The position numbers and the translations under genes were made by a program. The notes below the pieces were generated by a model that was not told the origin of the DNA, made no database searches, and saw nothing but the letters and a program-made list of their open reading frames with translations. Source: Patescibacteria group bacterium (lineage in GTDB: Bacteria > Patescibacteriota > Minisyncoccia > UBA6257 > 1-14-0-10-40-38). From it: a stretch of 46,155 nt of DNA. The DNA lies in assembly GCA_038063175.1 (NCBI GenBank), contig JBBTVP010000007.1:1-46155 (forward strand), read 5' to 3'. Below, one piece after another: positions 1,013 to 17,177 of this stretch. Each line of letters opens with the position of its first letter. Positions within the stretch are counted from its first letter, which is position 1.

Positions 1013-2098
1013 TTATTTGTCCTTCACTAATTTCACGAAATCTTCTTCTCGTTCGTATCCATGTAGTCGTCCTTCGAGCATTCCTAATCGGTAACTTACC
1101 CCGTCCGTCATAAGTCTCCAGTTCGTTTCTTTAAGGGTTTTTCTGAGGAGTTTTTCGAGTTCGTAGGTACTCGCACGATCTTCTCGATCAGGGCGCTGCT
1201 CATAAACTACGAAAGGGACCACTACGTCCTTCGTGATTTCCGGAGTCTTGAACTGCAATTTTATATACCCTTCCTTTTCAAGTACAGGTGCGAGCAGTTG
1301 CTCTAACTCAATAATTTTCAATTTCTTTAGCTTGGCGACCTTGTCATAGAGTTCTTTGTTCTTATCTTTTTCCTTTAGTTCATCCATCATCTTACTGACC
1401 TGCTCCAAGTTGTATTTTTGCTGTATGAATTCTTGACCCTCCTTTTCTGAAAGGCAGAATCGGGCGCGATCTTTTGCGTAGTCGGGATCGGGTTTGGATT
1501 CCTCATGGACTGTTCGTTTTATTTCACTCGTATCGGTGTAGTCGCATTTCGGGCAAGTGACGTTCGTAATGAATGCGGCATCCGTTACCGTATCTTCTTC
1601 GTTGACGGGAGTTTTGCACTTCGGGCAGCGTGGGGGATCATGTCTGAATTCTTCTCCGTTTTCATAGAACGCCCGGTGAGGGATGTGGCCCAGTGGGCAG
1701 TCATAGAAAAAGAGGATGGTATCCGGTTTCTTATCCCAGCCCATATTCAAATGCTTTGAGCTTACGAACGTGAGTCGCCCGCAGGTAAGGCAGGTAATGT
1801 TTTCCGGAGCCTTTGCCGCTTCAAAGAACTTGTCCCGCGCCTCGTCCTCCCGCATCCATTCCCGAATTGTTTCTTCTTTTTTGATATATCGCTCACCGGT
1901 ATAGAAATAGTTGTGGAGATGGTTTATGTAGGCGAGTGCCTGTTTCTCCTCTTTTTCGCTCAGTTTCTTCTCATTAGGATCTTTGGCGAGAGATTTCGTG
2001 TCTATGGAATGGGAAAGCCACCATCGACATTTCTCGACGGTGTAGCGGTCGTAGCGATCGATATACTCCTGTTTGGGACGCAAATACTTCTCATTCAT
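1013..2098 (-). CDS. Hypothetical protein with several CxxC zinc-ribbon motifs
   Basis: Clean 361-aa ORF. Cys pairs: CLTCGR, CPLGH, CPKCKTP, CPKCDY. The C-terminal half is coiled-coil-like and K/E-rich. Convergent with the RT, 5 nt apart. No family recognised. Confidence 0.6.
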   Translation of the reverse strand: MNEKYLRPKQEYIDRYDRYTVEKCRWWLSHSIDTKSLAKDPNEKKLSEKEEKQALAYINHLHNYFYTGERYIKKEETIREWMREDEARDKFFEAAKAPENITCLTCGRLTFVSSKHLNMGWDKKPDTILFFYDCPLGHIPHRAFYENGEEFRHDPPRCPKCKTPVNEEDTVTDAAFITNVTCPKCDYTDTSEIKRTVHEESKPDPDYAKDRARFCLSEKEGQEFIQQKYNLEQVSKMMDELKEKDKNKELYDKVAKLKKLKIIELEQLLAPVLEKEGYIKLQFKTPEITKDVVVPFVVYEQRPDREDRASTYELEKLLRKTLKETNWRLMTDGVSYRLGMLEGRLHGYEREEDFVKLVKDK

Positions 2099-2298: not shown

Positions 2299-3279
2299 GT
2301 GTATTTCACGGTAAAAGATAAAAGCGGGACCGGAGTGCTCGACTGCATTATGTGGAAGAGTACCTATACTTTGTGCGGGATAAAGCTGGAAGCGGGTATG
2401 GAGGTAATTATTTCGGGCCACCCGCAGGTATACCCAGAAAATGGAAAGTTTTCAATTATCGTGGATACGATCGAGCTTGTGGGCGAAGGTGCTCTGAAGA
2501 AGGCGTACGATGCACTACAGAAAAAGCTTGCCGCAGAAGGACTCTTTGATGTTTCTCGGAAACGAAAGATTCCGGAACTAGTTCACAGGATTGGAGTTAT
2601 CACTTCAAGCGAAGGGGCGGTGCTTAGCGATTTCAGAAATAATTTAGGGAAATTCGGCTTTAAAATCTCACTCGCTAATTCCCGGGTTGAAGGACAAGCA
2701 GCCTTAAAAGATCTCCACGCGGCCTTCCAGGTCATGAAGAAACAGAATATTCAGGTGTTAGTTGTCATTCGTGGTGGGGGATCGCTTGAGTCACTACAGG
2801 CATTCAATAATGAAATGCTAGTGCGCGAGGTAGTGAATTTTCCCGTTCCAGTCATCGCAGGCATTGGGCACGACAAAGACGTGCCACTTTTTGCACTTGC
2901 CGCTGACTGTATGACTTCAACCCCAACTGCTGCAGCTCATGTATTAAATCAGTCTTGGGAAGAAGCGTATGCGAAGCTTCATCAATTCACATATCTTTTC
3001 GCGCGTATGACTAAAGAGTTTGGTCGCATTCGTGCAGACCTGGATACTTCCGGGAGTTCGATGATAGACCACACTGAAGCACGAATAAAAAGCTTGAAGG
3101 AACGGATGGCTTTTGCAGCGCAATCTATAAGGCTCAATGATCCGACTAGGCAGTTGAAACTCGGTTATTCAATCGTGCGGCAAAGTGGTAAAATTGTTAA
3201 AAGTATTCAGGACGCAAAACCAGGAAGTAAGTTAGACACGCAAGTAGGAGATGGGACCATACAATCGATCGTAGAATAA
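2299..3279 (+). CDS. xseA: Exodeoxyribonuclease VII large subunit (main body; GTG start in the ORF track, N-terminus separated by a TAG)
   Basis: VYFTVKDKSG..., IGVITSSEGAVLSDF, VIRGGGSLESLQAFNNE, AGIGHDKD and TPTAAA match XseA landmarks. xseB follows directly. Confidence 0.85.
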   Translation: MYFTVKDKSGTGVLDCIMWKSTYTLCGIKLEAGMEVIISGHPQVYPENGKFSIIVDTIELVGEGALKKAYDALQKKLAAEGLFDVSRKRKIPELVHRIGVITSSEGAVLSDFRNNLGKFGFKISLANSRVEGQAALKDLHAAFQVMKKQNIQVLVVIRGGGSLESLQAFNNEMLVREVVNFPVPVIAGIGHDKDVPLFALAADCMTSTPTAAAHVLNQSWEEAYAKLHQFTYLFARMTKEFGRIRADLDTSGSSMIDHTEARIKSLKERMAFAAQSIRLNDPTRQLKLGYSIVRQSGKIVKSIQDAKPGSKLDTQVGDGTIQSIVE

Positions 3280-3284
3280 ATATC

Positions 3285-3491
3285 ATGCCCAAAAAAGAAA
3301 CAAGCGAATTTAAGCATCACCTTGAGGAAATTGCCCGAATTCTCGAGTGGTTTGATGCTCAAGAAGAACTAGACGTGGAACAGGCTCTCGAAAAAATTAA
3401 AAGCGCTGCAGAGCTTATTAAGGCCAGTAAAAAGAGATTAGTTGAAATCGAGAACCAGTTTGAAGAGATTAAAAAAGAAATAGATGAGTAA
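3285..3491 (+). CDS. xseB: Exodeoxyribonuclease VII small subunit
   Basis: 68 aa. MPKKETSEFKHHLEEIARILEWF... is helical and acidic. It lies 6 nt after xseA, the canonical position and size. Confidence 0.8.
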   Translation: MPKKETSEFKHHLEEIARILEWFDAQEELDVEQALEKIKSAAELIKASKKRLVEIENQFEEIKKEIDE

Positions 3492-4308
3492 CGAAATCAA
3501 AGAAGTCTCCCTGATTGCATCCATGCGCCTTCTTTCAGAGGCAGCAGCTGCAACGCAACGGCGCATGGTCGAAATGTCGGATATAATGATCGCGCCATTT
3601 CAGCGCTTCCAAAAGAATATGGAGCCTATTACGAAAGCAATCAACGAAATGCGGGGAATTCTTTTATCTGGATCGAATACATCTTATTTTCAAAATTCGA
3701 TGATTGAGAAAGATGTTTTTGTCATAGCTCCTCCGCCGAGGCGCGCCTCCACCGAAGAGATCGTTGATGTCGTGATGAGAAGAATAGAACTTGAGCATAA
3801 AGCTGATTTGCGGCAAATCAAAATAGAAAAATCAATTGCAATTCCTGATGGTGTTCGATGGGATGACATTCGAATAGACTTAAAAGACAACAGGTCAGCC
3901 GACATTTTTTGTAAAAAGGAATTGATTGGGACCTACGATTATGAACTCCTCGGACTTGTTCGTAGGAACACTTCTGCAAAAATTCCTAACCAGCAAAGCG
4001 AATTTCTCAAACAACTCGCCTTCGCTTCTATGTCTGAAAATTTATTTAAACCAACGGTCCAAAATATCGCTCAAGAAATGAAGATTAAGTCGAACGATTG
4101 CCACCAGATCAAGAGAAGTCTCTCTAAAAAATTAAAAACCGTATTTGGTATACCTAAAAATCCTTTCCATCGATATGATCCGATAGAGGGCTATCGTCCT
4201 CGTTTTGAACTCAGGCCGCCACCGCTCTTACGCAGCAAAGGAGAACTCTACTCCTCAGGAGGTAGTCTCTACGCCGAGACCATAGATTATACCGACACCG
4301 AAGAATAG
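3484..4308 (+). CDS. Hypothetical protein, translationally coupled to xseB
   Basis: 274-aa ORF. Its ATG overlaps the xseB stop (ATGAGTAA). A strong terminator follows. No recognisable domain. Confidence 0.6.
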   Translation: MSNEIKEVSLIASMRLLSEAAAATQRRMVEMSDIMIAPFQRFQKNMEPITKAINEMRGILLSGSNTSYFQNSMIEKDVFVIAPPPRRASTEEIVDVVMRRIELEHKADLRQIKIEKSIAIPDGVRWDDIRIDLKDNRSADIFCKKELIGTYDYELLGLVRRNTSAKIPNQQSEFLKQLAFASMSENLFKPTVQNIAQEMKIKSNDCHQIKRSLSKKLKTVFGIPKNPFHRYDPIEGYRPRFELRPPPLLRSKGELYSSGGSLYAETIDYTDTEE

Positions 4309-4309
4309 G

Positions 4310-4344
4310 CACCCGCTGAAAACTCAGCGGGTGTTTTTGTTTTT
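4310..4344 (+). terminator. Rho-independent terminator
   Basis: Perfect 10-bp stem cacccgctga (4310-4319) / tcagcgggtg (4324-4333), loop aaac, then tttttgttttt. Confidence 0.85.
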
Positions 4345-4429: not shown

Positions 4430-5716
4430 ATGCCGAATAAAAAACTGGTGTGGCATACAGAAAAAAGAAAGGTCAATGACCTTATTCCGTTTGAGAAAAA
4501 CCCAAGAACGCTAAGCGATAAGCAGCTAAGAGATTTAAAAAAAAGCCTACAGGCCTTCAACCTTGTTGAAATACCGGCTATAGGGCGTGACAACCAGATA
4601 CTCGCCGGACATCAGAGAGTAAAGGTACTGCAAATCCTTGGGAGAGGAGAAGAAGAGATCGACGTTAGGGTGCCAAATAGAATACTCACAGAAGAAGAGG
4701 CAGAAAAGTATCTGATTTCGAGTAATGCCTTGGGCGGGGACTGGGATTTTGAAAAATTGAAATCCTTTGATCTTGATCTACTTACCGATATCGGTTTCGA
4801 CAAGGCGGAGCTTGAAGACATTTGGGCTGAAAATCTAGAAGTAGAAGAAGATTACTTCGACGAAAAAGCTGAGTTGGAAAAAATAGGTAAACCGAAAACA
4901 AAGCTGGGTGACATTATCGCTCTCGGAAAGCATAAAATTATTTGTGGCGATGCCACGGATCCTGCCGTACTAAAAAAATTGTTCGGTAAGGAAAAGGCAT
5001 CAATGATTTATTCGGATCCAGTTTATAACCTGAAGATAGATTACAACACTGGAATCGGCGGGAAGCAGCGCTATGGTGGGAACGTCAATGACAACCGTAG
5101 CGAGTCGGAATATAAAGAGTTTCTCAAGAAGAGTCTCATAAATGCTCTCTCGGTCACAAAAAATGACGCGCATGTCTTCTACTGGAGCGATCAAATTCAT
5201 ATCGGCACCCTTCAGGATTTGTATCGCGAATTAGGGATAGAAAATAAGCGAGTTTGCCTCTGGCTTAAAAACGCGCAGAACCCGACTCCCGGTGTAGCGT
5301 TCTCAAAATGTTACGAGCCGTGTACCTACGGAATTCGTGGAAGGCCCTATATTAGTAAAAATCTCCAAAACCTCAACGAGGTTTTGAACAAGGAAATCAC
5401 AACGGGCAACAATCTGATCCAGGAAACGTTGGACCACTTGGACGTATGGATGGTTAAACGACTATCGACTAAGGACTACGAACACGCAACCTCAAAGCCT
5501 CCAAAACTCCACGAGAAAGCGATCCGCCGTTGCACGCGCCCGGGAGACATCATCCTGGATAGTTTCTCGGGGTCGGGGAGCACCATGATCGCCGCAGAGC
5601 AACTCAGGCGGCGGGTATACGCGGTTGAGCTTGAGCCAGCGTTCTGCGACCTGGTAATACGGCGATACGAAAAACTTACTGCCAGGAAAGCTTGGATAAT
5701 TTCGCACGGACCATGA
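4430..5716 (+). CDS. ParB-like nuclease domain fused to an N6-adenine/N4-cytosine DNA methyltransferase (orphan, phage-type)
   Basis: N-terminal ParB-N motifs (LIPFEKNPRTLS, ILAGHQRV). MTase motif IV variant SDPVYN. AdoMet motif DSFSGSGST near the C-terminus (beta-class order). No restriction gene adjacent. Confidence 0.8.
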   Translation: MPNKKLVWHTEKRKVNDLIPFEKNPRTLSDKQLRDLKKSLQAFNLVEIPAIGRDNQILAGHQRVKVLQILGRGEEEIDVRVPNRILTEEEAEKYLISSNALGGDWDFEKLKSFDLDLLTDIGFDKAELEDIWAENLEVEEDYFDEKAELEKIGKPKTKLGDIIALGKHKIICGDATDPAVLKKLFGKEKASMIYSDPVYNLKIDYNTGIGGKQRYGGNVNDNRSESEYKEFLKKSLINALSVTKNDAHVFYWSDQIHIGTLQDLYRELGIENKRVCLWLKNAQNPTPGVAFSKCYEPCTYGIRGRPYISKNLQNLNEVLNKEITTGNNLIQETLDHLDVWMVKRLSTKDYEHATSKPPKLHEKAIRRCTRPGDIILDSFSGSGSTMIAAEQLRRRVYAVELEPAFCDLVIRRYEKLTARKAWIISHGP

Positions 5717-6138
5717 AGAAAAATAAAGTCAGGGATGCCTTCTTAGAACAGTTAAGAAAAATACCAATTATTCAGGTCTGCTGCGAGAAGGTCGGTATCT
5801 CTCGCAATAGTGTATACCGCTGGCGTGGTGAAGATAAAGAATTTCAAGAGCAAATGGACGCCGCCTTGGTTGAAGGCGAAACGTTGGTCAACGAAATGTC
5901 GGAAAGTCAGGTGCTTAGCCTTATCCGCGAGAAGAATTGGCAAGCCATATCTTTTTGGTTAAAGCACCGAAATCCAAAATTCCGTGACCGTGTAGAGGTG
6001 ACGGCAAAAGTAGAAACAAGTCATGTCCTTACTTCTGAGCAGGAGGCATTGATTGAGGAGGCGCTTAAACGAGCGGCTCTTCCCCTCATTGAACCATTAG
6101 AAATAAAACAAAACGACCATGGAAAACCCAAGCAATAA
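5713..6138 (+). CDS. Phage terminase small subunit-like HTH protein
   Basis: MKKNKVRDAFLEQLRKIPIIQVCCEKVGISRNSVYRWRGEDKEFQEQ is a helix-turn-helix of the kind found in small terminases. The ATG at 5713 overlaps the methylase stop (ATGA). The ORF-track start at 5692 is a TTG. The gene lies directly upstream of the large terminase. Confidence 0.6.
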   Translation: MKKNKVRDAFLEQLRKIPIIQVCCEKVGISRNSVYRWRGEDKEFQEQMDAALVEGETLVNEMSESQVLSLIREKNWQAISFWLKHRNPKFRDRVEVTAKVETSHVLTSEQEALIEEALKRAALPLIEPLEIKQNDHGKPKQ

Positions 6139-7591
6139 TTTAGAAATAGATCCCGAGGACCCCTTCTGGAAAAAGGTTATTAGCGATCAAGAAGTTAGGC
6201 GAGCAGTCGTAAGGAAAAATCACCTATTATTTTTCAATGTATATTTTCCCCACTACGTGAAATCTAAAACCGCACCGTTCCAAAAAGAATTTTTCTCGAT
6301 TACCGAGGACGATGCGGTGGAATTAGCCGTGATTGAGGCTTTTCGAGGATCTTCAAAATCAACCATTATGGCCATGTCGTACCCGATTTGGGCCATTCTC
6401 GGGCGTCCGCAAAAGAAATTTGTAGTCCTGTTCGCTCAAACACAAAACCAAATTAAAATTCACCTTGCAAATATAAAGCGAGAGCTTGAATTCAATGAAC
6501 TCCTGAAAGCGGATTTGGGTCCATTCCAAGAGCAGAATGACGAATGGCGATCGGTCACGCTCGTTATTCCTAAATACGATGCCCGAATTATGATCGCATC
6601 ACTTGAGCAGCAGGTACGCGGACTGCGTCATGGAGCGCACCGTCCAGACCTGATTATTTGTGATGATTTGGAAGATTTAGATTCGGTTAAAAGTCGAGAC
6701 AATCGGAATAAAGTATACGATTGGTTCAAAAAAGACATCGTACCGCTTGGAAATCCCCAAACAAAAATCCTTGTGATTGGTACCAGGTTCCATGAAGATT
6801 CTCTAATTATGCGTTTGCGAAGGGAGATTTTGGAGGGCAAAACTTCAGGCATAACCCGTTCCTATCCACTCCTGGATAAAGAGGGAAATATCGCATGGCC
6901 GGGGGAATTTCCCAATCAGGAGGCAATAGAAAAGCTCAAAAAGAAAGTTGGCGACGAGCGTGCATGGAGGCAGGAGTTTCTATTGGAGATTGTCGGCGAT
7001 CTTGATCAAATCATCGAGCCGGTCTGGATAGAGCGCTACACCTGCTTTCCTCATCCCGATAATTATCTCTTAACCATCATCTCCATAGATCCTGCATTTC
7101 GGGAAACAGAAAGATCTGACTATAGCGCGGTTATAGCGGCCAAGGTCTATGTAATCAACGACAAACCGTATGTCTATATCCTGCCAGAGGTAATTAATGA
7201 GCGTCTTAAGACACCAGACTTGATTGATCGGATCAAATTACTCATTAAATCTATCCTGGCGCAGGGAGCTCACGGTGCATACCTGGTTATTGAAGCGGTG
7301 GGTGGACAGATAGGAATTGGGCAGCAGTTTGAGCGGCTGGGAATGAACGTCCGTGAATTCAATCCCGGTCGGATGGATAAACGAACACGATTATCGATCG
7401 TATCTCCGATGGTTCGTGATGGGCAGGTATTCTTTCCTGAAAAAGGAACTGAGGAACTTGAAAATCAGATCATTAACTTCGGCGTCGAAGCGCATGATGA
7501 TATGGCCGACGCATTCTCAATGCTCCTCATAGAGATACTCGAGAGATATAGCTCATTTCCGAGAGTTACCGCAGGCAGTTCGGATGAATAA
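6119..7591 (+). CDS. Phage terminase large subunit
   Basis: Walker A-like FRGSSKST and Walker B DLIICDDLED. C-terminal RNase H-like nuclease acidic residues (IISIDPA, HDDMADAF). 490 aa, typical size. Confidence 0.8.
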   Translation: MENPSNNLEIDPEDPFWKKVISDQEVRRAVVRKNHLLFFNVYFPHYVKSKTAPFQKEFFSITEDDAVELAVIEAFRGSSKSTIMAMSYPIWAILGRPQKKFVVLFAQTQNQIKIHLANIKRELEFNELLKADLGPFQEQNDEWRSVTLVIPKYDARIMIASLEQQVRGLRHGAHRPDLIICDDLEDLDSVKSRDNRNKVYDWFKKDIVPLGNPQTKILVIGTRFHEDSLIMRLRREILEGKTSGITRSYPLLDKEGNIAWPGEFPNQEAIEKLKKKVGDERAWRQEFLLEIVGDLDQIIEPVWIERYTCFPHPDNYLLTIISIDPAFRETERSDYSAVIAAKVYVINDKPYVYILPEVINERLKTPDLIDRIKLLIKSILAQGAHGAYLVIEAVGGQIGIGQQFERLGMNVREFNPGRMDKRTRLSIVSPMVRDGQVFFPEKGTEELENQIINFGVEAHDDMADAFSMLLIEILERYSSFPRVTAGSSDE

Positions 7592-7593
7592 GA

Positions 7594-8673
7594 CTACTTA
7601 CACGTCTCGTGCAGTATTCTATCCGAGTACGACTGAAGCAACGCCTCTGCACTCAGAAACGACTTCAGGTATTTTGGTGACAACCCCTTCCAACCGTCGT
7701 CGGTATCGCAGTAGTAGAACTTGGCGCTGTAGTAGGAGCTTGTATAAAAGGTATGCCCTCCTGGCTGCGCCGCTGGAGGCGGCGGATTCGAACTCTCTTC
7801 TATACACGCATCGTCTGCCCAGAGGCCGAGCTTTGCCGCTCTCGCCTCGGCCTCTGCGGCTTTGAATTCCTCCTGATATTTGTATGGGACCTTGTAGGTG
7901 TACTCCGAGGCATAACCATCTGCGATCATCTGCTTATTAAAAAATGTTCCATCTTCAAGCCAGGCGTATCGAAGAAGCCGTCCGTATTTATCACGATCTC
8001 CTTGGGTAGGGTCGGATTCAAGTTTTATATTTTTACTCGTAAGTAGGGCCTTAGATCTATTCGAAGCTTCTTTCCCAAAACATTGGACTGGCTTTCTTGG
8101 GTCAACCGTTTCAGGTGTATCGATGCCGATTGCGCGAACCGTTTCAATAGTTCCATTAATGTTTACCTTGAAGGTATCGCCATCGGTAACAGAGACTACT
8201 GGATAGTAAATAATTTGCGGAGATGGTTTAGACGCTGGTGGCGGAGTTGCTGGCTTTGGCGCGGGTGCTGGCGCTATGGGCTTCACTGCTGGCTGCGGCG
8301 GAGGAGCGACTTGATTACTTATTCCTTGAGGAGCCGGTGGCACAACCGTATTCGTTGCCTGAACATTTTCATTTATCTGATTGACTACCTCAGCTGTCGG
8401 CTTAATCGCTCCAACAATAGGAGCGGCGATCACAAGAATGAGTACGATGATAAATTTCAGTGGTCCGGAGATCGCAAAATTCCATTTCTTTTTTGCGAAC
8501 GCATTCGCGGGTGGCAGGAGAATTAATGCAGCAACGATAAAGAGTGCTCCGGTGACAAAGGAGGTGAATATTACGACAAATCCGATGAGCCAGAACACCA
8601 GCGCAAAGATCCAACTTACGACCAAGCGGAGCGTCATTCTCTTCGGTTCAGTATTGTCATTTTGTTCAGTCAT
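7594..8673 (-). CDS. Membrane-anchored thermonuclease (Staphylococcal nuclease/SNase homolog)
   Basis: N-terminal TM helices and a Pro-rich linker. SNase core: VTDGDTFKV...IGIDTPET...FGKEAS...DKYGRLLRY...GLW. A C-terminal Cys-containing module follows (FYYCDTDDGW...HETC). Confidence 0.8.
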   Translation of the reverse strand: MTEQNDNTEPKRMTLRLVVSWIFALVFWLIGFVVIFTSFVTGALFIVAALILLPPANAFAKKKWNFAISGPLKFIIVLILVIAAPIVGAIKPTAEVVNQINENVQATNTVVPPAPQGISNQVAPPPQPAVKPIAPAPAPKPATPPPASKPSPQIIYYPVVSVTDGDTFKVNINGTIETVRAIGIDTPETVDPRKPVQCFGKEASNRSKALLTSKNIKLESDPTQGDRDKYGRLLRYAWLEDGTFFNKQMIADGYASEYTYKVPYKYQEEFKAAEAEARAAKLGLWADDACIEESSNPPPPAAQPGGHTFYTSSYYSAKFYYCDTDDGWKGLSPKYLKSFLSAEALLQSYSDRILHETCK

Positions 8674-8691
8674 ATTTTTCTGTTGAGATAT

Positions 8692-9189
8692 TTATTCAAG
8701 ACTGCGATAAAGATCTTCTATTTTCTCTGTCGTATCGAGGACCTGTTGATTAAGCTCAAGAGGTGGATTTGTTTCTTTCCCATCTGAGAAGAAATTCGTA
8801 CCTCCAAGATCAAACATTTCAATCTGCCAGCTTGTTAAGTCTTTCGAAGATCCGCCAGTAAGGCGCAGTTCTAGAAAAAAATGACTTCTTAAGAGCCCTC
8901 CTAAAGCGTTCTGCGAATCAACATCTCCGAAGACTACGAAGAAATCTGGCTCACTTATTAATTTTTCGTGGGAAATAATACTACTGAACTGTGCTGATCC
9001 GGGAGATACAAGATACGAGGTCACTATTTTTTTTGCAACCTGCTCAGCATCCTGAGTTTTATTTACTTCAGGTAAGGAAACGATAGAGGGTGCCTCATTA
9101 GTATTGTTAGTTATCACGACGTGAATTATGGCCAACACCACAACTATCAGAATTCCTACTATCAAGTAAATGATTTTTTGCTTACTCAT
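8692..9189 (-). CDS. Hypothetical membrane-anchored protein
   Basis: MSKQKIIYLIVGILIVVVLAIIHVV is a signal-anchor. The ATG at 9187-9189 is preferred over the ORF-track start at 9315, which extends into a structured GC-rich intergenic region. Same strand as the nuclease gene, 18 nt upstream of it. Confidence 0.6.
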   Translation of the reverse strand: MSKQKIIYLIVGILIVVVLAIIHVVITNNTNEAPSIVSLPEVNKTQDAEQVAKKIVTSYLVSPGSAQFSSIISHEKLISEPDFFVVFGDVDSQNALGGLLRSHFFLELRLTGGSSKDLTSWQIEMFDLGGTNFFSDGKETNPPLELNQQVLDTTEKIEDLYRSLE

Positions 9190-9260
9190 ATTATGATTAG
9201 TTATTGAGTCTTTAATTATCTTTTGTCGACCAATTATCTCGGCAGAATGAGTCAATGATC

Positions 9261-9373
9261 GTGGAGATTTTAAAACACAAAACTCCACGCTGACCCGACC
9301 CCTTGCGGGATCCACACCCTTTCGGATGTGACTCTAGGTGAATAGGCCAAACGTGGAGTTTGGTATCACCTAG
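9261..9373. other. Cluster of nested inverted repeats/hairpins (candidate ncRNA or recombinase site)
   Basis: gtggagatttt (9261-9271) / aaaactccac (9279-9288). gacccc-ttgc-gggatc (9297-9312). cacaccc-tttc-ggatgtg (9313-9330). ctaggtga (9334-9341) / tcacctag (9366-9373), enclosing ccaaac/gtttgg. Confidence 0.5.
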
Positions 9374-9510
9374 AGAATTTCTTGAGCCATGCCGCCCGAT
9401 TACTCGGAGGGTTTAGGCTACTACCGCTATTCAGTTGTTAATGACCATAATATCCCTAAACCCTCGCCCCTCCAAGACCCTATCGCAGATCATTAGTTCT
9501 GCTAAGCCGG

Positions 9511-9531
9511 GTTGCCAACACGTTGCCAACA
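9511..9531 (+). repeat. Tandem direct repeat gttgccaaca-c-gttgccaaca just upstream of the recombinase start
   Basis: Two perfect 10-nt copies at 9511-9520 and 9522-9531. Confidence 0.7.
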
Positions 9532-9573
9532 GCTCTTCTTTACTCCTGGGACCAGTCTGTCATCAATGGTGGC

Positions 9574-10893
9574 ATGGAAATTCAACCCACGGCGCTTATA
9601 GGCTCTCCAGCAGCGATTCCAACGATAAAAGTGAAGTATTGCCTTTACGCTCGTAAATCGACCGAGCAAGACGAAAAACAAGCCCTATCTATCGATTCCC
9701 AGGTCAAAGAGATGCTCGCTATTGCAGAACGAGATACCCTTGAGGTTATAGATATTCGAAGAGAAGCTCATTCCGCAAAGGATTCTGGTCAGCGCCCGGT
9801 TTTTAAAGAAATTCTAGAAGACATAAAACGGGATAGGTTCAATGGAATACTCACCTGGGCACCTGACCGATTAAGTAGAAATGCAGGTGACCTAGGCAGC
9901 GTCGTTGATCTAATGGATCAAAAACATCTTGTAGAAATCCGTACCTACGGCCAACAGTTTAGAAATTCTCCGAATGAAAAGTTTCTTCTCATGATTCTCT
10001 GTAGCCAAGCAAAACTAGAAAACGACAATAAAAGCATCAACGTAAAAAGGGGATTGAAGACTCGGGTTGAAATGGGTCTCTGGCCCGCTCCCGCCCCTAC
10101 GGGATACATAAAAGAAAAACGGATGGATCGGAAATGCGAAACTCTCATTGATCCTGCTCGGGCACCGGTAATTAAGCAGATGTTTGAAAAAGTAGCCTAC
10201 GAAAAATGGAGCGGAAGGAAAACATATCACTGGCTCAAATTCGATCTCAATTTTAAAACCATTACCGGGAACAAAAATCTTACTCTTGGCAATGTGTATC
10301 TACTTCTGCAAAATCATTTCTACTATGGGGTTTTCGAATATCCAAAGAAAAGCGGAAATTGGTATACCGGGAAACACGAGCCGATCATATCTAAAGAGTT
10401 ATTCGATGCAGTTCAAAACCAAATCAAAACTCAATTTATACGATCCGAAAGTAAAGAATTCGCTTTTACGAAGCTAATGACTTGTGGATTATGTGGGTCA
10501 GGCATAACCGCCGACGAGAAATTCAAGAAGCAAAAAAACGGCAACGTTCACCGGCACGTCTACTACGGATGTGCGAAGACGAAAGACAGATTTTGCAAAG
10601 GCGGCTATATAAACGAGATAGATTTGATCAAGCAATTTGAAGAGCTTATTGAGAAAATTGATATTGATGAGATTGGGATAAAAGAAAAAATTAAAACCGA
10701 AGTTGAACGCTTTAAGAAATTTCAGCAGGTAGTTCTTGGTAGTAAAGAAAAAGTAATGATTGCCGATATCGATATACGGAATTATGCAAAATATCTTCTT
10801 AAAGAAGGAACGGATATTGAGAAGAGAGAGCTACTAGGATGCCTAAAAAACAGAATTTCTTTAAAAAATAAGGAGATTAGTCCGTCGATTTAA
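9574..10893 (+). CDS. Large serine recombinase (resolvase/invertase N-domain + recombinase domain + zinc ribbon)
   Basis: YARKSTEQDEKQALSIDSQ contains the catalytic Ser motif. Also APDRLSRN and a Cys cluster, CGLCGSGITADE...YYGCAKTKDRFC. The start is uncertain: TTG 9523, ATG 9574 and GTG 9631 are all in frame. Confidence 0.85.
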   Translation: MEIQPTALIGSPAAIPTIKVKYCLYARKSTEQDEKQALSIDSQVKEMLAIAERDTLEVIDIRREAHSAKDSGQRPVFKEILEDIKRDRFNGILTWAPDRLSRNAGDLGSVVDLMDQKHLVEIRTYGQQFRNSPNEKFLLMILCSQAKLENDNKSINVKRGLKTRVEMGLWPAPAPTGYIKEKRMDRKCETLIDPARAPVIKQMFEKVAYEKWSGRKTYHWLKFDLNFKTITGNKNLTLGNVYLLLQNHFYYGVFEYPKKSGNWYTGKHEPIISKELFDAVQNQIKTQFIRSESKEFAFTKLMTCGLCGSGITADEKFKKQKNGNVHRHVYYGCAKTKDRFCKGGYINEIDLIKQFEELIEKIDIDEIGIKEKIKTEVERFKKFQQVVLGSKEKVMIADIDIRNYAKYLLKEGTDIEKRELLGCLKNRISLKNKEISPSI

Positions 10894-13800
10894 CCAGGGG
10901 TAGGAGTTGTTATGGTTAGTGCCGGGATTACTGCCACTTCGGTTACATTGTCATCTAGGACTTTATAAATCAACGGTACGTTTTCTTTGTACGATGCTTC
11001 ATCGTTACCAACGAAAACGATTTTTTCCTTTTCGTGTAAATTAAGTGCCTTAATTGTCGCGCTATTTTTTTGCCAATACTCCGCAAGTTTTACTTTGTCT
11101 AGAACTTTTGTAAATTCATTGATGCTTGGTTCATATTTTCGCCCATCTTCACGAGCAGAAGCGAATACGCTAGCAAAGTTTCTAAACAAGTAATCTATGA
11201 GATGCTCAACGTTTTTTGGTTCAGATGGATTGAAGCAGATACTAAAAAGATAATCATTTACAATTCCACGAATTACTTGTTTATCTTCTTTCCCTGTTGG
11301 ATCATAGTAGCCACAACCAACACCGTGGCTGATTTCACTATTACCAAGTTGATAAAGAATAAAACTACTCACTCGGGTTTTAAGCTCGGTAGATTTTTTG
11401 TCGATATCAGATTGTTTAATTCTGCCTTCCGCAATCTTTTTTAGTAGATAATTATTAGATTTACTCGCGAGATCTGCTATCCGAAGAGCTGCAGTATCGT
11501 CAAAAATATTTCTACCAGGGTCAATATACCGCGCTTTAAATATCGAAAACACTTTTTGCGAAATTTCTCGCATTTCTTCGCGTGCAATAATACGCATATC
11601 ACCTTCGGTAGGAGCCTCTTCATCGGCGTGCTGCGCTAGCGCTCGTGAAAGATTGAATATATCTCCACCTCGATCTGCGCTGCATGCTAAGCGGAAAATC
11701 ATTAAATCGTATACACCAAGGATCCCGCGATCCGATTGTGACAGCGTTGTGAGAACCCCATTTTCCGCGTGTCTACCAGTTCCGAAAACCCACTCACTAA
11801 TTTCTTTAATATTTTCTGGAGTATTACGAGAATGTTCTCCTGCAGCATCAATCCAGCCGGCATCATTTAATAAACGGGTTAGGAAATAATCAAGATCATG
11901 ACGTAAACCCATGCCAAAATCTTTTAGTTCTAATAAAGAATATTCGGGGATGCTTTCTAGTAAATAGATTATTATTGAATTAGCTGGATTCTTTTTAAGC
12001 CCATGGGCATTGTTAACTAATATGCGCCAAAGTTTTTCTCGAGTACTCTCACCACTGTTGTATGTAAATTTCTCATCCGCAAAAGCACTCTTGGGGCTGA
12101 CTTCTCCTTGAGTGATCTGGTCTCTTCTATTCATGTAAAAACGATGCTGGCCTACGTCTTCTGGCTTCGAGAGTTTTATGATCAAATCTAAATATGTTTC
12201 AAGATTTCTACCATTGGTCCACTCACCATTAAAACAAGCTAGCGAAGTACGTATATCATCTGGAACATTATCTATTTGTGCATATCTATCACCGTCCGGG
12301 AAATTACTTCCAATAGCATTTTTTAGTCTGACATTTACATTGAAGATCTCATCTAGTAGAAAACGCTGTCGACTATCTTTCCGAAATTGTTTTAAATAAT
12401 CATGGTAATAGAGAGAATTTTTATAAGTAGAGTCGCTAAAAGATGATCGGGATTGACCCGAGGTTTCAGGTGGATAACCATCATCGTGAGGTATTACTAG
12501 AGAAAAGAAGCCCCGGCCACCATTTGTCTCAGTGTCATATATCTTTCTAAAGACATCTGGGTAGTGAATATAGATAAGTAGTAAATTGATCAAATCTCGC
12601 TTATCAAAATCGCTATTTTTAAAATCGGTCCCCTGAAGATCAAACATCATCACGGTATTAATAAGACGTTTTAGTTTTCGCACATCACCTATAAAAGGAA
12701 GGTATTTATGATATGAAGATGATTTATAGATATCTAATAATCCACCAATGGCCTGCCTTATGGGAAGGGGATCGACTATGCTTGTTGAAAGAGCTTTCTC
12801 TAGATTTTCAGAAACATATTTTGATAGATCATCTCTATCTAAGTAGAGACTAATTTTTATGTTAATAAATTTCTCTAAGAACTCACGGATTTTTTCAGTT
12901 TCAGGGCTTTTCGCATCTAATGCATTAATATTTTCAGTATCGTAACAAAGGACGTATGAAATATTCGGAAGAATAAGACTTTTTCTTATGACGAATAAAA
13001 TATCTTTGATTTCTGTAAAATCGATTCGATCGAGATCATCAACGACAATGATTATTTTTTTATCAAAACGACGCAGGATAGCATTCAAGTCATTAAATGC
13101 TTCGTCAGCCGTATAATTTACTGATAGTGTCGGAAGCGTAAATCCGAACAGAGAAAACCGACTTACTTCTTTGAGTAGCCGAGAATAGCGAGAAATAAGA
13201 GGCTTAATCTCGGGCACGAATGAATCTTTTTGGATTGCGTGAATAAGGCCATCGATAAAGACTTCGAGAAGTTGAGTGGTGCCCGAGTGGCGCAGGGGAC
13301 TGAATTTATAGACAATTGTTTGGCTAGGATGTTTTTCTTTCCAATATTCTTGGCAAAAATTGATAAAGGTTGATTTTCCGATTCCCCAGGGTGCATCAAC
13401 CCCGAATACGAAACTTTCTGGCGAACCACCATTGAAAATTCTCTCAGCGAATCTATTAGCCTTTTCGGCGAAATTGAGAAGGTCGTCGTTTTTCTCTTCT
13501 AGCTCTAGATCAACGACGAGCGACGATTCTATTTGATCTCTTTTCCAAATGCCCGATCTCGTTAAAACTAAGAATCCTAAAATAAATGGTGTTGAAATTA
13601 TTGTTAATAATTGAACGGTATCTAGGGCGGCGATGGTATTAATATACCAACCAGAGAAATGGCTACTCCATACAATACTCAGCCAAATACCAAAAGAAAA
13701 CGCGATCAGAATATCTAATCGGCCACTTTTTAAAATCTTTTTGAAGTTAGCGTAAAAGTCTCTGGCTAAAAGATAGAAGGTCAGAATAAGGAACCCCACA

Positions 13801-13997
13801 ACATAAATCACGAGTATTTTATACCTGTGGTTTTCTAAGTCGAGCGGAATAATTTTCCCTGTGGTTAGTATTGAAATACGGCAAATCTCAGTAGCAAGAA
13901 CACCAAAAAAAATTGTTCTAATAAGTACCGTGAGATTTGCGGTAGTTATTCTTAAATCAGTTAGACTCTCTTTAAGTCTAGTAAAATATTTCTCCAT
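10890..13997 (-). CDS. KAP-family P-loop NTPase with an N-terminal multi-TM domain
   Basis: About 150 aa of hydrophobic helices. Walker A: GVDAPWGIGKSTFINF. Walker B: KIIIVVDDLDR. A roughly 550-aa uncharacterised C-terminal region follows. The stop overlaps the recombinase stop by 4 nt (ttaa). Confidence 0.75.
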   Translation of the reverse strand: MEKYFTRLKESLTDLRITTANLTVLIRTIFFGVLATEICRISILTTGKIIPLDLENHRYKILVIYVVGFLILTFYLLARDFYANFKKILKSGRLDILIAFSFGIWLSIVWSSHFSGWYINTIAALDTVQLLTIISTPFILGFLVLTRSGIWKRDQIESSLVVDLELEEKNDDLLNFAEKANRFAERIFNGGSPESFVFGVDAPWGIGKSTFINFCQEYWKEKHPSQTIVYKFSPLRHSGTTQLLEVFIDGLIHAIQKDSFVPEIKPLISRYSRLLKEVSRFSLFGFTLPTLSVNYTADEAFNDLNAILRRFDKKIIIVVDDLDRIDFTEIKDILFVIRKSLILPNISYVLCYDTENINALDAKSPETEKIREFLEKFINIKISLYLDRDDLSKYVSENLEKALSTSIVDPLPIRQAIGGLLDIYKSSSYHKYLPFIGDVRKLKRLINTVMMFDLQGTDFKNSDFDKRDLINLLLIYIHYPDVFRKIYDTETNGGRGFFSLVIPHDDGYPPETSGQSRSSFSDSTYKNSLYYHDYLKQFRKDSRQRFLLDEIFNVNVRLKNAIGSNFPDGDRYAQIDNVPDDIRTSLACFNGEWTNGRNLETYLDLIIKLSKPEDVGQHRFYMNRRDQITQGEVSPKSAFADEKFTYNSGESTREKLWRILVNNAHGLKKNPANSIIIYLLESIPEYSLLELKDFGMGLRHDLDYFLTRLLNDAGWIDAAGEHSRNTPENIKEISEWVFGTGRHAENGVLTTLSQSDRGILGVYDLMIFRLACSADRGGDIFNLSRALAQHADEEAPTEGDMRIIAREEMREISQKVFSIFKARYIDPGRNIFDDTAALRIADLASKSNNYLLKKIAEGRIKQSDIDKKSTELKTRVSSFILYQLGNSEISHGVGCGYYDPTGKEDKQVIRGIVNDYLFSICFNPSEPKNVEHLIDYLFRNFASVFASAREDGRKYEPSINEFTKVLDKVKLAEYWQKNSATIKALNLHEKEKIVFVGNDEASYKENVPLIYKVLDDNVTEVAVIPALTITTPTPG

Positions 13998-14196: not shown

Positions 14197-15060
14197 TCAT
14201 TTAAGCAGCACAATTCCTAAAAATACAACAACAGCACCGAAGATCCTTCTCCTAAGGTTTGACCGTTCTCTAAGAAAAATAATTCCACCGAGCGAGGTGA
14301 GAATTGTTGAGCTATATAGAGCAGGTGATGCAACCGATGCATCAACTAAGGCAAAAGCTTTCAAAAAAAGAAAATATCCAGCGACACTCAAAAATGCAAG
14401 GAAAGGAATTTTCCAAGTGCGAAGAACCAACTCTCGCTTTATTAGCCCGAGGGCATCCTTTCGCTGAAAGCGAAAGATTAAAAATATGAGAATACCCGGA
14501 ATTCCGTAGGTGATTAACATGTAGAGGCTAAGGGGGAATGAGGGCGAAGCAAATTTATCGGCGACATAAGAAAGTCCTATTGCTACAGCTCCCAAGAGAA
14601 CGATGCGAATTCCCTGGAGAGATACTTTCCCGTCGTGTTTATAGAGCGCGATCATGTTACCTCCAACAATAAGTACTACTGCAATTAATCTGCGCAATGT
14701 GATTTCTTCGTGCAAGATGAGCGCAGATCCAATGAAGGTAGCAATGGGAGCGATTTGAGTAAGTTGCGTTCGATACGAAACTTCAATGTATTTATGGCCA
14801 AAGAATTTTGTTGCAGAGAAAATGGTGTATCCAATACACGATAAAATAACCGCAATCCATACCCATACGCTCAACTTTCCGGGGAATGCTGGTCGGATTA
14901 CAATGAACGCCATTAAAGAAATAACAGTGGCAAAAAAATCATGCAATATTGCAATAGTCATTGGTTCATCGCTTTTTACCGCAGTTACGCGTGAAAGTAA
15001 GCTATACAAGGTAAAAATCAATGCAGATCCAAGTGCAAAGGAAATTCCTAGGGCAGCCAT
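14197..15060 (-). CDS. EamA/DMT-family transporter
   Basis: 287 aa, about 10 hydrophobic helices arranged as two repeated halves typical of EamA. Confidence 0.7.
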   Translation of the reverse strand: MAALGISFALGSALIFTLYSLLSRVTAVKSDEPMTIAILHDFFATVISLMAFIVIRPAFPGKLSVWVWIAVILSCIGYTIFSATKFFGHKYIEVSYRTQLTQIAPIATFIGSALILHEEITLRRLIAVVLIVGGNMIALYKHDGKVSLQGIRIVLLGAVAIGLSYVADKFASPSFPLSLYMLITYGIPGILIFLIFRFQRKDALGLIKRELVLRTWKIPFLAFLSVAGYFLFLKAFALVDASVASPALYSSTILTSLGGIIFLRERSNLRRRIFGAVVVFLGIVLLK

Positions 15061-15084
15061 CGTAATGTTTTAAGTTTTCATGAG

Positions 15085-16848
15085 TCAACCAACTTCTGCC
15101 TGGTAGCAGGTTTCACAATACACAATTTCCTTCCGGTCAGAGGCATATGGAGTATCAAAGGTATTAGGGCAGCGGCCTTCAGTATGATGAATGTGCTGCC
15201 TTGTATTAGTATGATTGGCATAATCGCAAGCGCATTGGCGCCGGTAAAGTTTGTAGGTGGTCAGACGCTTCATTCTTTCGTAATGGCGACAGTTGGGGCA
15301 CAGGCGTGGAAGTGCGATATTCTTAGTTTTGTATAGCTGAAATTCCGAAGGAATAATACGGAATCCCACGGTACATTTCTGGTTACAAAAACCTTTATGC
15401 AGGCATCCAATCGTTTTTCCCACAATACTCTCATTGGCATCTTTAATATGATCTGGTAGATCGCTTGGGGAAATATCAATTGCAGCGGTTCTCTCAGCTT
15501 CTTCTTTCCATCGCCATCCCTCACCGGTTACTTCTCTTTCGGTGAGCGGGAACCAATCGTGCGCCATTGTTTCATTGTAAGCGAAGGGAGCTATCTCGAC
15601 GGGAAAAAATTCCCCGTACTTATATATTCGCCCTTTCGCATCGACATAGGGTACTTCATCCATCTGTTTCCTAATTTTCGGTACCAACGCCTCGTACTCT
15701 TCCTTTGGATACTGTTTGTTCAAAATACAGTATTGTTTTCCCCGAATGCCGATAGAACCGAAGAGATCCGATGCACCGCCGCGACAGGATTCGCAGTACT
15801 CGAGGTTGCGAACTTGCGGCCAAGTGTCCGAGGAAAACTTTATGTTGTAGACCTCAACACCGCTTGTGGAGTTTTCGTAGCAAAGTTCCATTCCATCGCC
15901 TATATTTACATCCATACTATCCTTAGCTTGGCTTCCAAATAGCAGATAGCGGCAGTTTTCGATATCCGATCCATTGAAACAGTAGTAAGCATTTTTTGTG
16001 TTACTAAACGCATGACCGGTTGAGTTCGTAACATTTTTAGAATTCGCGTATCGGTGAATGCTTTTCGCGTACATATCCGCAAATTCTTTTTTGTACCCTT
16101 CGAGTTTTTTGTAGGAGCCGGTGTCGATTTCGGCGATGCTCTTCGCGTACTCTTCTTTGTCGAGCGGTTTGTTACGGAAGTAGTGGGAAGAACGACGCAA
16201 ATTAGAACTCATAAAGCAGTTATCCGAACCGCTCGTGTCGTAGCAAAAGAGTAGGTTCAAACCATCGGCGATATCTTGAGAAAAGTAGAGCAGTGCCGAA
16301 TCACGGCTCTCGATCGTTTCGTAGCATTGTTCATCTTTAAAGATGAAGAACGAATCGGTGATTTTTCTTGAGGAAATGATTCGGTAGGAATAGTTGCAGT
16401 CTTCGTTCCACCCCGCGCCGAAAACAAGGTAGCAGTTTTTACAGTCGATAATTTGATTTGTATAGTCGCAGTTCACGCAATTGTCGATCTGAAGTGAAAT
16501 GCGGGGGACTGCATCAAGTAATTCCCGGAACTGGCTGAAAAAGGTCTTTGAAAAATCGTACGCTCTACCATAGCTCAGCGGATCCCATTTGTCGGAGTAC
16601 CAGCAGGAACGGCAATATACGGGGAATTTCGCATCTGCAGGGTACATCGCAACGATGGAAGTTTTGCAGAGGTCACACGTGCGTCGGTAGAGGGTTCTTT
16701 CGTTCCGCCAGACTTGTCGGCGTTGGAGGCGACATTGTGGGCAAAATGTCGGAGGAGGAACTTTGAACTTTTCGTAAAATCGGAAATCTTCCGGTTCAAT
16801 AACGAACTGCTTTTTACAGTTCTGACAAGTTTTTTCTTCTGAATTCAC
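15085..16848 (-). CDS. Cysteine-rich protein with matching zinc-ribbon modules at both termini
   Basis: GTG start. N-terminus: CQNCKKQFVIEPEDFRFYEKFKVPPPTFCPQCRLQRR...LYRRTCDLC. C-terminus: CTVGFRIIPSEFQLYKTKNIALPRLCPNCRHYER...LYRRQCAC. No named family recognised. Confidence 0.65.
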   Translation of the reverse strand: MNSEEKTCQNCKKQFVIEPEDFRFYEKFKVPPPTFCPQCRLQRRQVWRNERTLYRRTCDLCKTSIVAMYPADAKFPVYCRSCWYSDKWDPLSYGRAYDFSKTFFSQFRELLDAVPRISLQIDNCVNCDYTNQIIDCKNCYLVFGAGWNEDCNYSYRIISSRKITDSFFIFKDEQCYETIESRDSALLYFSQDIADGLNLLFCYDTSGSDNCFMSSNLRRSSHYFRNKPLDKEEYAKSIAEIDTGSYKKLEGYKKEFADMYAKSIHRYANSKNVTNSTGHAFSNTKNAYYCFNGSDIENCRYLLFGSQAKDSMDVNIGDGMELCYENSTSGVEVYNIKFSSDTWPQVRNLEYCESCRGGASDLFGSIGIRGKQYCILNKQYPKEEYEALVPKIRKQMDEVPYVDAKGRIYKYGEFFPVEIAPFAYNETMAHDWFPLTEREVTGEGWRWKEEAERTAAIDISPSDLPDHIKDANESIVGKTIGCLHKGFCNQKCTVGFRIIPSEFQLYKTKNIALPRLCPNCRHYERMKRLTTYKLYRRQCACDYANHTNTRQHIHHTEGRCPNTFDTPYASDRKEIVYCETCYQAEVG

Positions 16849-17106
16849 CCTTGTATTCTAATCCTATCTTGACTCGAATCCTAGATCGATTACTTTTCGC
16901 GAAGCTGAAAAATCGCTGTGTTAACGCGTCTCGGGCGCGAGGACCTATTCATGTACGTCGAATCTAAAAGATTCGACGCCTCGGTTTCCTGATTTAATTG
17001 GGCCTATGCCGAAGGTAGGCCGAATTCTGTTGAATTCGGCACCTCAGCCTTCTCATCTTAATGGGCCGTTGGCCCCTAGAAACTAGATTTAGTGTGCGGC
17101 TTCGAG

Positions 17107-17177
17107 CTGCGGGACAGGGAATCGAACCCCAATTTCGACGTTCAGAGCGTCGCGTCCTACCATTAGACGATCCCGCA
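17107..17177 (-). tRNA. tRNA-Gln (anticodon CUG), CCA not encoded
   Basis: The reverse complement folds as a cloverleaf. Acceptor UGCGGGA/UCCCGCA has the U1-A72 pair, and G73 is the discriminator. D stem GUCU/GGAC. Anticodon stem CGACG/CGUCG with loop CUCUGAA. T stem-loop UGGGG-UUCGAUU-CCCUG. Confidence 0.9.

Follow-up and report, generated by a model that had tools for sequence, protein, structure and literature searches.

A phage-derived integrative island with terminase and serine recombinase genes, without capsid genes, and its relatives in Patescibacteria

Introduction

Among the systems described so far, those closest to the element considered here are the phage-inducible chromosomal islands (PICIs), whose core set comprises an integrase, an AlpA/MerR/Stl-type regulator, a primase-replicase and a small terminase (PMC10085698). 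Within the known satellite families the large terminase (TerL) occurs only in the capsid-forming PICIs (cfPICIs), which encode it along with their own capsid, head-tail adaptor and connector (PMC10085698). The subject of this work is an integrative island found in a Patescibacteria group bacterium (GTDB lineage Bacteria; Patescibacteriota; Minisyncoccia; UBA6257; 1-14-0-10-40-38), on contig JBBTVP010000007.1 of assembly GCA_038063175.1. The whole contig (C7; 46,155 nucleotides) was analysed and is termed the window hereafter; the assembly amounts to 771 kb in 72 contigs, is 95.6% complete and is not closed. The island encodes a ParB-domain DNA methyltransferase (MTase), a small terminase (TerS), a TerL and a large serine recombinase (LSR), and is very probably a member of a mobile, capsid-less family distributed throughout the phylum Patescibacteria.

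Patescibacteria account for a large share of bacterial diversity and have tiny genomes, with few known prophages and mobile elements; to our knowledge, the phylum lacks conjugation. An intact element present in about one in nine genomes would be a major route of gene flow in these organisms; the islands described below move between tRNA sites and carry defence systems, copper resistance, transporters and diversity-generating retroelements (DGRs). The family represents a phage-derived integrative island or satellite design for which no describing paper was found in the literature searched: none combined Patescibacteria, terminase and serine recombinase, and the papers on prophages of the candidate phyla radiation (CPR) deal with ordinary full prophages.

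Comparison with described elements

Like the PICIs (e.g., the Staphylococcus aureus pathogenicity islands, SaPIs), the element is an integrative island in the range of 10-20 kb, located at a specific chromosomal site, with its own integrase and small terminase, accessory and defence cargo and no virion genes; in addition, relatives of the window island have a repressor-controlled divergent switch. It differs from the PICIs in adding a complete TerL, in having the ParB-methylase in its core and in its integrase, which is an LSR situated at one end whereas PICIs use a tyrosine recombinase. Neither a primase-replicase nor a gene redirecting capsid size was found in the island, no match to an AlpA/MerR/Stl-type regulator was obtained among its open reading frames (ORFs), the relatives having LexA/S24 or XRE repressors, and its host belongs to Patescibacteria, with no helper known. 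With the cfPICIs the island shares a TerL encoded beside TerS; however, capsid-, connector- and portal-type genes are absent from the window, the genome and the relatives examined. Judged by these core sets, the island falls outside the PICI and cfPICI families, while plausibly working like them.

Temperate Caudoviricetes, represented here by the IMG/VR contig L127 and by the CPR phage contig L009, show a homologous MTase-(MTase2)-TerS-TerL order (the window MTase is 44% identical to that of L127 and the window TerL 35% identical to that of L009), but in these phages head-module ORFs follow TerL (confirmed in L009; not profile-checked in L127), whereas in the islands the LSR follows. Compared with a functional tailed prophage, the window lacks portal, major capsid, tail and lysis genes after TerL. 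Targeting of tRNA 3' ends is a habit typical of tyrosine integrases. The islands resemble LSR elements (SPbeta SprA, SCCmec CcrAB, phiC31-type) in the three-domain recombinase and in the location of the integrase near one end of the element, and two tandem recombinases, reminiscent of CcrAB, are present in L056 and L065; they differ from them in targeting tRNA 3' ends with shared cores of 17-22 nt (17 nt being the candidate of the window) and in that no recombination directionality factor was identified. Finally, as in the defence islands of satellites (P4-like elements, PICI hotspots), variable slots contain PifA-like KAP NTPase, restriction-modification (R-M), cyclic oligonucleotide-based antiphage signalling (CBASS) and nuclease genes; the host phylum and the core machinery differ, and genes for copper resistance and cation efflux as well as DGRs are found among the cargo.

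The packaging and integration module

Proteins and RNAs were compared with the Pfam, PHROG, PADLOC and Rfam profile libraries, and tRNA genes were located with ARAGORN. The core of the island comprises the following features:

4307..4336, plus strand: intrinsic terminator ahead of the packaging operon (13-bp stem with 7 GC pairs, then a T run)
4430..5716, plus strand: core gene 1, ParB-like N-terminal domain fused to an N6/N4 DNA methyltransferase (N6_N4 Pfam 1.7e-25; phrog_498 2.4e-88; ParB-like phrog_620 2.5e-25)
5692..6138, plus strand: core gene 2, small terminase TerS, helix-turn-helix protein (phrog_4044 4.3e-13)
6119..7591, plus strand: core gene 3, large terminase TerL, 490 aa (phrog_38 1.5e-81; Terminase_6C; island-type TerL group)
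9523..10893, likely start near 9574, plus strand: core gene 4, integrase, LSR (phrog_95 1.4e-62)

A first-pass annotation made from the letters alone had flagged positions 4430-13997 as a phage-derived island, and its calls of the ParB-methylase, TerS and TerL agree with these coordinates and pass the Pfam and PHROG profile searches, those of both terminases included. The strong terminator that it placed before the packaging genes is present, and the genes form the tight plus-strand run that it described, with start/stop overlaps of 25 nt (MTase/TerS) and 20 nt (TerS/TerL). The ATPase and nuclease motifs of TerL are intact, as it had also stated: Walker A (RGSSKST), Walker B (DLIICDDLED) and the nuclease acidic residues in IDPAF and HDDMADAF are visible in the sequence and invariant across the three island TerLs aligned. 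The LSR contains Resolvase, Recombinase and Zn_ribbon_recom domains, all three above the Pfam cut-offs. It is 87% identical to the LSR of locus L010 and 64% identical to that of a second copy of the island on contig C49 of the same genome, a paralogue in which the YARKST motif is kept.

The island family across Patescibacteria

For the comparative analysis, the best 80 of at least 275 relatives (from a scan of the GTDB collection with one genome per species) were combined with the window and the relatives' loci, giving ~84 loci whose ORFs were clustered. Four clusters recur in a fixed order, MTase (78 loci), TerS (77), TerL (81) and LSR (56), and no other widely shared cluster, nor any of portal or capsid size, was detected in the ~84 loci. 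The methylase, regarded as cargo in the first-pass annotation, is refuted as such by its presence in 78 of these loci and belongs to the core. The order ParB-MTase, TerS, TerL, LSR occurs in most of the 80 genome loci and in ~25 IMG/VR contigs (L090-L114, with TerL identity of at least 37%), as well as in L007, L008 and C49. The core is one co-directional module, which at times includes a second methylase (MTase2), with a short variable slot for surface-exposed proteins before the LSR. Of 60 relatives belonging to the same taxonomic order, three have a TerL homologue: two of them display the island layout, in which MTase-TerS-TerL is followed by a convergent staphylococcal nuclease (SNase) gene, with the LSR next in one and the contig ending before that point in the other, and the third, L009, is a true phage contig where portal, minor head and major head proteins, confirmed by profiles, come after TerL.

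In a sample of 401 Patescibacteria genomes evenly drawn from 320 genera, the island-type TerL was present in 45 genomes (41 genera), and 50 of the 52 matches had no internal stop. The ratio of nonsynonymous to synonymous substitutions (dN/dS) for MTase, MTase2, TerS, TerL and LSR was 0.01-0.09 in one pair, L079/L086, two islands that are ~92% identical and have unrelated flanks and different target tRNAs. There is strong support that the family is under strong purifying selection and is never accompanied by virion genes. These data bear on the possibility, contemplated in the first-pass annotation, that the island is a decayed prophage that happens to keep its packaging and integration genes. 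The genes are indeed phage-derived, and in the second copy TerL is truncated where the contig ends; nevertheless, random decay would not spare the same four genes across classes, and the same subset in the same order, with open frames, is found in most of the 80 loci and in the 45 genomes mentioned, at the low dN/dS ratios given. The recurrence of this gene subset across the phylum, in a fixed order, with open frames and under strong purifying selection, refutes this interpretation, which we regard as highly improbable.

Concerning the origin of the module, the IMG/VR contigs with TerL identity of at least 37% all have the island layout, whereas those with identity of 29% or less (from L117 on) are phage-like, with co-directional portal-sized ORFs after TerL. 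In a tree of 109 island and 17 phage sequences, the two kinds of TerL are split by a single branch, which has no support. One of the phage-like contigs, L127, displays MTase-MTase2-TerS-TerL followed by co-directional portal-sized ORFs (not profile-checked), a layout that fits a phage origin of the packaging module. Positions 7525-10713 of L007 and 8274-11462 of L052 share 88% nucleotide identity that is confined to MTase-TerS-TerL and ends at the TerL stop, the remaining genes of the two islands being different; the block is exchanged between islands as a unit. Furthermore, the window and L010 share 87% identity in the LSR but only ~53% in TerL, evidencing different histories for the recombinase and the terminase.

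The second copy in the same genome occupies positions 9927-18453 of C49 (L003), on the minus strand, and ends at a tRNA-Gln(TTG). It includes a TerL truncated where the contig stops, a LOOT RNA with an SNase gene, the LSR, and as cargo an R-M pair (a 728-aa methylase-specificity fusion plus a type II endonuclease) and an 820-aa unknown protein; its MTase, TerS and TerL N-terminus are absent from the assembly.

Some members of the family deviate from the common scheme. A single in-frame stop (TGA and TAG) interrupts each of two island-type TerL genes, G447:C11:8185-9618 and G135:C1:248073-249509, which may be pseudogenes or be recoded in lineages with an altered genetic code. Two full-length tandem TerL genes, often without a recognisable TerS ORF, are present in L019, L023, L093, L094, L097, L098 and L112, which correspond to metagenome-assembled genomes labelled Peregrinibacteria/Peribacteria and to similar unlabelled IMG/VR contigs. 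Of 38 whole contigs inspected for terminal repeats, L065 (JAFGMD010000010.1, 17334 bp) was the only one to have them (44 bp, exact); it encodes MTase-MTase2-TerS-TerL and two tandem LSRs of 576 and 582 aa, its ten other ORFs gave no structural match and one Ntox44 toxin domain, and it may be a circular extrachromosomal form.

Integration at tRNA genes and limits of the island

The region originally flagged is only part of the element; its genes are inside the island, but the latter is larger on both sides. The features that define its limits are:

3..1007, plus strand: DGR-type reverse transcriptase (RT), cut by the contig start, probable island cargo (RVT_1 8.7e-24)
1013..2098, minus strand: 361-aa zinc-ribbon protein of cluster c12, recurrent island accessory (weak Zn-ribbon matches; c12 in 7 island loci; paralogue on C36)
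2299..3491, plus strand: xseA-xseB (exonuclease VII), probably inside the island (Exonuc_VII_L 1.4e-57; Exonuc_VII_S below cut-off; low-GC block 1-17092)
3484..4308, plus strand: 274-aa protein in a variable slot directly upstream of the methylase (no Pfam, PHROG, PADLOC or PDB match)
14197..15060, minus strand: EamA-family transporter, cargo (EamA 1.1e-25; absent from all 11 other genomes of the host's taxonomic family)
15085..16848, minus strand: cargo, 587-aa protein rich in Cys and containing several zinc ribbons (nothing matched in Pfam, PHROG, PADLOC or PDB)
17093..17109, no strand assigned: candidate attR core TGTGCGGCTTCGAGCTG, across the 3' end of the tRNA-Gln gene (identical 17-mer in the same orientation at intergenic C50:6134-6150)
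17106..17177, minus strand: tRNA-Gln(CTG), integration target, 3' end toward the island (ARAGORN; Rfam 58.4 bits)

At the tRNA-Gln(CTG) the GC content steps from 0.428 on the left to 0.486 on the right, the genome average being 0.494; a similar step occurs at the tRNA-Gln(TTG) on C49, in both copies exactly at the tRNA, and synteny with relatives of the same taxonomic family starts only at 17303. Because these three observations agree, the right end of the island is placed at the tRNA-Gln(CTG), ~3 kb past the flagged region, which adds the EamA transporter and the 587-aa protein to it. Beyond this end, a 155-aa ORF (17303-17770, plus strand) lies upstream of a PilB-like ATPase gene and its position is kept in five of the six family relatives examined; since this ORF is conserved, an overlapping 218-aa ORF on the opposite strand (17279-17935, minus) is probably spurious.

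The left end is located past the contig start, probably on contig C50. That the island runs past the start of the window is deduced from the 274-aa protein, which is absent from the family relatives and has its sole detected homologue (26% identity, 7.7e-16) at the same position in island L074, from the rarity of xseA (2 of 12 genomes of the taxonomic family), and from the recurrence of c12 and of the DGR RT in islands. The island measures no less than 17 kb, and probably 20 kb or more. The 17-mer across the end of the tRNA-Gln gene has one other occurrence in the genome, at C50:6134-6150, next to which there is additional, imperfect similarity; a 17-nt match of this kind arose by chance in 9 of 2000 shuffles. 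The C50 site is followed by a DGR cassette with ~70% protein identity to the cassette that adjoins the LSR in L008. We regard the 17-nt site on C50 as a candidate attL. Candidate junction and cassette together occupy C50 6134-9394 (L139); the cassette consists of an Avd-like gene and an RT that is apparently frameshifted near 8826-8873. No contig overlap joining C50 or another contig to the start of C7, or to the end of C49, was found, and within positions 1-17000 of the window the tRNA-Gln end is not repeated in either direct or inverted orientation.

Locus L041 (9.6 kb, at a tRNA-Ser) is bounded by exact 20-nt direct repeats that include the tRNA end, and L073 (18.3 kb, at a tRNA-Trp) by exact 22-nt ones; the candidate repeat of the window is placed much as these. 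Across loci, tRNA genes on the LSR side have their 3' end toward the island in 31 of 36 cases, compared with 5 of 11 on the other side. Moreover, the type of tRNA clusters on the LSR tree (10 changes versus a shuffled mean of ~13.4, a value reached in 1 of 500 shuffles). Thus, there is strong support for the insertion of the family at 3' ends of tRNA genes, with different tRNA sites in different genomes.

Six relatives show no synteny upstream of the conserved PilB operon. An empty site could not be reconstructed from the genomes compared, none of which is of the same genus. In assembled metagenome contigs the predicted attB had no match, and a degenerate attB/attP/attL/attR pattern retrieved only C50 itself (source groundwater assembly ERZ1292623, ~4x coverage). 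The tRNA-proximal ends of the two copies of this genome and of L010 share no conserved arm beyond the tRNA. In L010 (18935-19106) a 53-nt exact partial copy of the 3' part of tRNA-Gln(TTG) is located 47 nt from the full tRNA gene, a duplicate that looks like a trace left by integration or by a previous tandem element.

Virion and replication genes

In the window, TerL is followed by a convergent nuclease operon and not by a head module. The absence of portal, capsid and tail genes reported in the first-pass annotation holds for the large ORFs of the window: the ten largest remaining ORFs had no head, portal or tail-module match in PHROG, only incidental domains, the small ORFs between 17 and 46 kb being covered in part. 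It had also been contemplated that structural genes might lie just outside the region in a reordered assembly; none appeared in a search of the whole genome at E<=1 for the HK97 capsid (PF05065), the portal (PF04860) and phrog_64 and phrog_1328, the families matched by the portal and major head proteins of a related CPR phage. Likewise, the structural ORFs of 17 related true-phage contigs had no homologue in the genome. Primase, helicase and Rep domains were absent from the large ORFs scanned at 1-17 kb of the window and from L041 and L073.

It could be argued that the island is part of a complete virus or of a gene transfer agent (GTA)-like system, whose structural genes are too divergent to be recognised or are located elsewhere in the genome. 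Several island ORFs (274, 587 and 166 aa) have no detectable homologues, proteins of CPR phages are thinly covered by profile libraries, and the genome, at 95.6% completeness, is not closed. Against this, the repeat-bounded L041 leaves no room for a virion: considering its 9.6 kb and its non-core ORFs, namely a SAM methyltransferase, a histidine phosphatase, a DUF4352 protein, a 302-aa unknown protein and two small unscanned ORFs (58 and 70 aa), it cannot encode one. In addition, only the core clusters are shared across loci, when TerLs with 40-50% identity should bring with them detectable portal and capsid homologues; the related CPR phage L009 has recognisable portal and head proteins, without a homologue in this genome; and the 587-aa protein is a Cys-rich zinc-ribbon protein. 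We consider a hidden virus or GTA very unlikely.

Separately, a 550-aa protein encoded at 35018-36670 (minus strand) matches phrog_28378, of unknown function, over its full length (9e-166); by its size and context it is probably the product of a host housekeeping gene that some phages also carry, and not a phage gene.

Cargo and regulation

Convergent with the LSR is the largest cargo gene:

10890..13997, minus strand: 1035-aa KAP P-loop NTPase, PifA/QatA-like, defence-type cargo (KAP_NTPase 1.4e-38; PADLOC PifA 4.3e-29, QatA 6.3e-10)

The LSR stop codon overlaps that of the KAP NTPase gene, in accordance with the first-pass annotation, with which we also agree on the assignment of this gene to the cargo. 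The gene is single-copy in the genome and its best-scoring PifA segment spans residues 162-260 only; it is predicted to be a PifA-like defence gene. Four DGR-type RT paralogues are encoded in the genome (on C7, C19, C21 and C50), and the RT together with an Avd-like gene recurs within islands of the family (L008, L019, L047, L052, L099, L103, L104). A search of PDB sequences with the 587-aa and 274-aa proteins gave nothing useful. A fifth core gene just 5' of the methylase was also considered and rejected, as the families at that position are unrelated (hhalign probabilities below 2%).

In the whole family, the variable positions contain R-M systems, CBASS, DUF2779 and NucS-like nucleases and DGRs, as well as genes related to metals such as copper resistance (CopA, multicopper oxidase, DsbD/DsbA, cupredoxins) and cation efflux. 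About 25 loci encode a LexA/S24 repressor divergent from the packaging operon and others a small XRE protein; neither kind of repressor is visible among the island ORFs of the window copy, and the only LexA homologue of the genome is on C51. In the repeat-bounded island L073 (4750-7810), a LexA/S24-type repressor gene is immediately followed by a CBASS pair (SMODS cyclase plus HNH-SAVED effector), and a cation-efflux gene is also present; leftward operons similar to that of L073 recur upstream of the methylase in other loci.

How the island may work

The interpretation towards which we lean, by a modest measure, is that the element is a satellite-like island that travels in the capsids of another phage. 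On induction the LSR would excise the island as a circle; in many relatives a LexA/S24-type repressor may govern this step, although none is visible in the window copy. TerS would then recognise a site in the island, and TerL would cut the DNA and pump it into the procapsids of a helper, which would be an infecting or co-resident phage of the lineage that gave rise to the module. In the next cell the ParB-methylase mark would protect the DNA against restriction, and the LSR would re-integrate the island at a tRNA gene. On this view the island would be a satellite-like parasite of phages whose defence cargo repays the host. The exchange of MTase-TerS-TerL as a block between L007 and L052 fits this proposal, as such exchange would be expected if the module has to match an external partner such as a portal. 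A satellite-like element with its own packaging specificity and integrase was one of the two options of the first-pass annotation; the anatomy and the comparative data fit it, whereas we infer the dependence on a helper virion, and for the helper-capsid step in particular we see the chances as evenly balanced.

Several observations weigh against this proposal. No helper phage was found, no IMG/VR phage TerL exceeds ~35-38% identity to the island TerL, and the island-bearing genomes searched contain no resident prophage with a related TerL. A LexA/SOS-type switch would make little sense if no resident helper were induced with it. No replication module was found in the island, which makes the source of the packaging substrate hard to explain. 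The left end in this genome consists of one 17-nt match on another contig, with no overlap between C50 and C7; neither an excised circle nor an empty site was present in the assembled metagenome contigs, the source assembly having ~4x coverage; and the tRNA-flanking sequence is not conserved between the window and L010, despite LSRs that are 87% identical.

Part of this evidence would also be accommodated if the packaging module worked without a capsid, either exapted for defence or interference or processing the island for some other kind of export, with the LSR serving for mobility only. In a defence variant, the terminase would cut or sequester the DNA of invading related phages, while the methylase would mark self DNA. 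The lack of a helper or close phage TerL, of a resident prophage in island-bearing genomes and of a replicon in the island all point in this direction, as do both arms full of defence genes (the PifA-like KAP NTPase, the R-M pair of C49, the CBASS of L073), the frequency of LexA-type control and the pairing of a methylase with a nuclease, which is formally R-M-like. Conversely, TerS and a full-length TerL keep all the ATPase and nuclease motifs of working packaging motors, the MTase-(MTase2)-TerS-TerL arrangement is that of the phage-like L127, with portal-sized, not profile-checked ORFs after TerL, and the block exchanged as a unit between L007 and L052 (88%) behaves as expected of a module that has to match an external partner. 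We know of no precedent for terminase function without a capsid, which also counts against such a role; all in all, we judge it unlikely, yet a rival to be taken seriously. A more specific form, to which we assign a distinctly low probability, is that the MTase-TerS-TerL-LSR operon constitutes a self-sufficient, capsid-free, site-directed cut-and-translocate device exapted in Patescibacteria, which would either act against invading phages when their DNA is packaged, by destroying or hijacking it, or transfer the excised island along a route that involves no virion. If this form were true, defence, metal-resistance and DGR cargo would be spread in Patescibacteria mainly by these islands.

If the island is instead a satellite travelling in helper capsids, its design is unusual (a full terminase, a serine integrase, no capsid genes and no replicon), and would widen the known designs of phage parasitism and imply an unseen population of helper phages. 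The LSRs of the family form a compact and diverse set of tRNA-targeting enzymes that may serve as integration tools.

The nuclease operon and the LOOT RNA

The slot between TerL and the LSR is variable in the family. In the window it contains the following features:

7594..8673, minus strand: membrane-anchored SNase homologue, cargo (SNase 2.9e-25; PADLOC SNc+LTD 7.1e-48)
8692..9189, minus strand: 166-aa signal-anchored protein, first gene of the nuclease operon (N-terminal membrane anchor in the translation; phrog_13160 2.8e-11, function unknown)
9297..9419, minus strand: LOOT RNA (RF03000), 5' leader of the nuclease operon, divergent from the LSR (73.5 bits)

The convergent two-gene nuclease operon noticed in the first-pass annotation is real; however, the nuclease, which had been considered secreted, is membrane-anchored and not freely secreted, as deduced from the hydrophobic/transmembrane segments at its N-terminus, followed by a Pro-rich linker. 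SNase homologues fill the same slot in C49, L007, L008, L033 and L045. The long, structured spacer before the LSR corresponds to LOOT RNA: the match (73.5 bits against a gathering threshold of 46.4, E 2e-12) covers the full model, positions 1-121, and 108 nt separate it from the gene of the 166-aa protein with which the nuclease operon starts.

With an nhmmer model constructed from Rfam-confirmed LOOT hits, the RNA was detected in ~30 loci. In those that were mapped it is located immediately 5' of an OB-fold (tRNA_anti-like), DUF4352 or SNase gene adjoining TerL, and in most of them it is divergent from the LSR. It looks like a cis-acting leader of genes for surface-exposed proteins, and an orphan RNA thereby gains a genomic context, as leader of surface nuclease and OB-fold genes in islands. 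Elsewhere in the family, LOOT RNA occurs at 12214-12326 in L010, 6262-6373 in L018, 8036-8152 in L008 and 17123-17228 in the C49 copy (L003).

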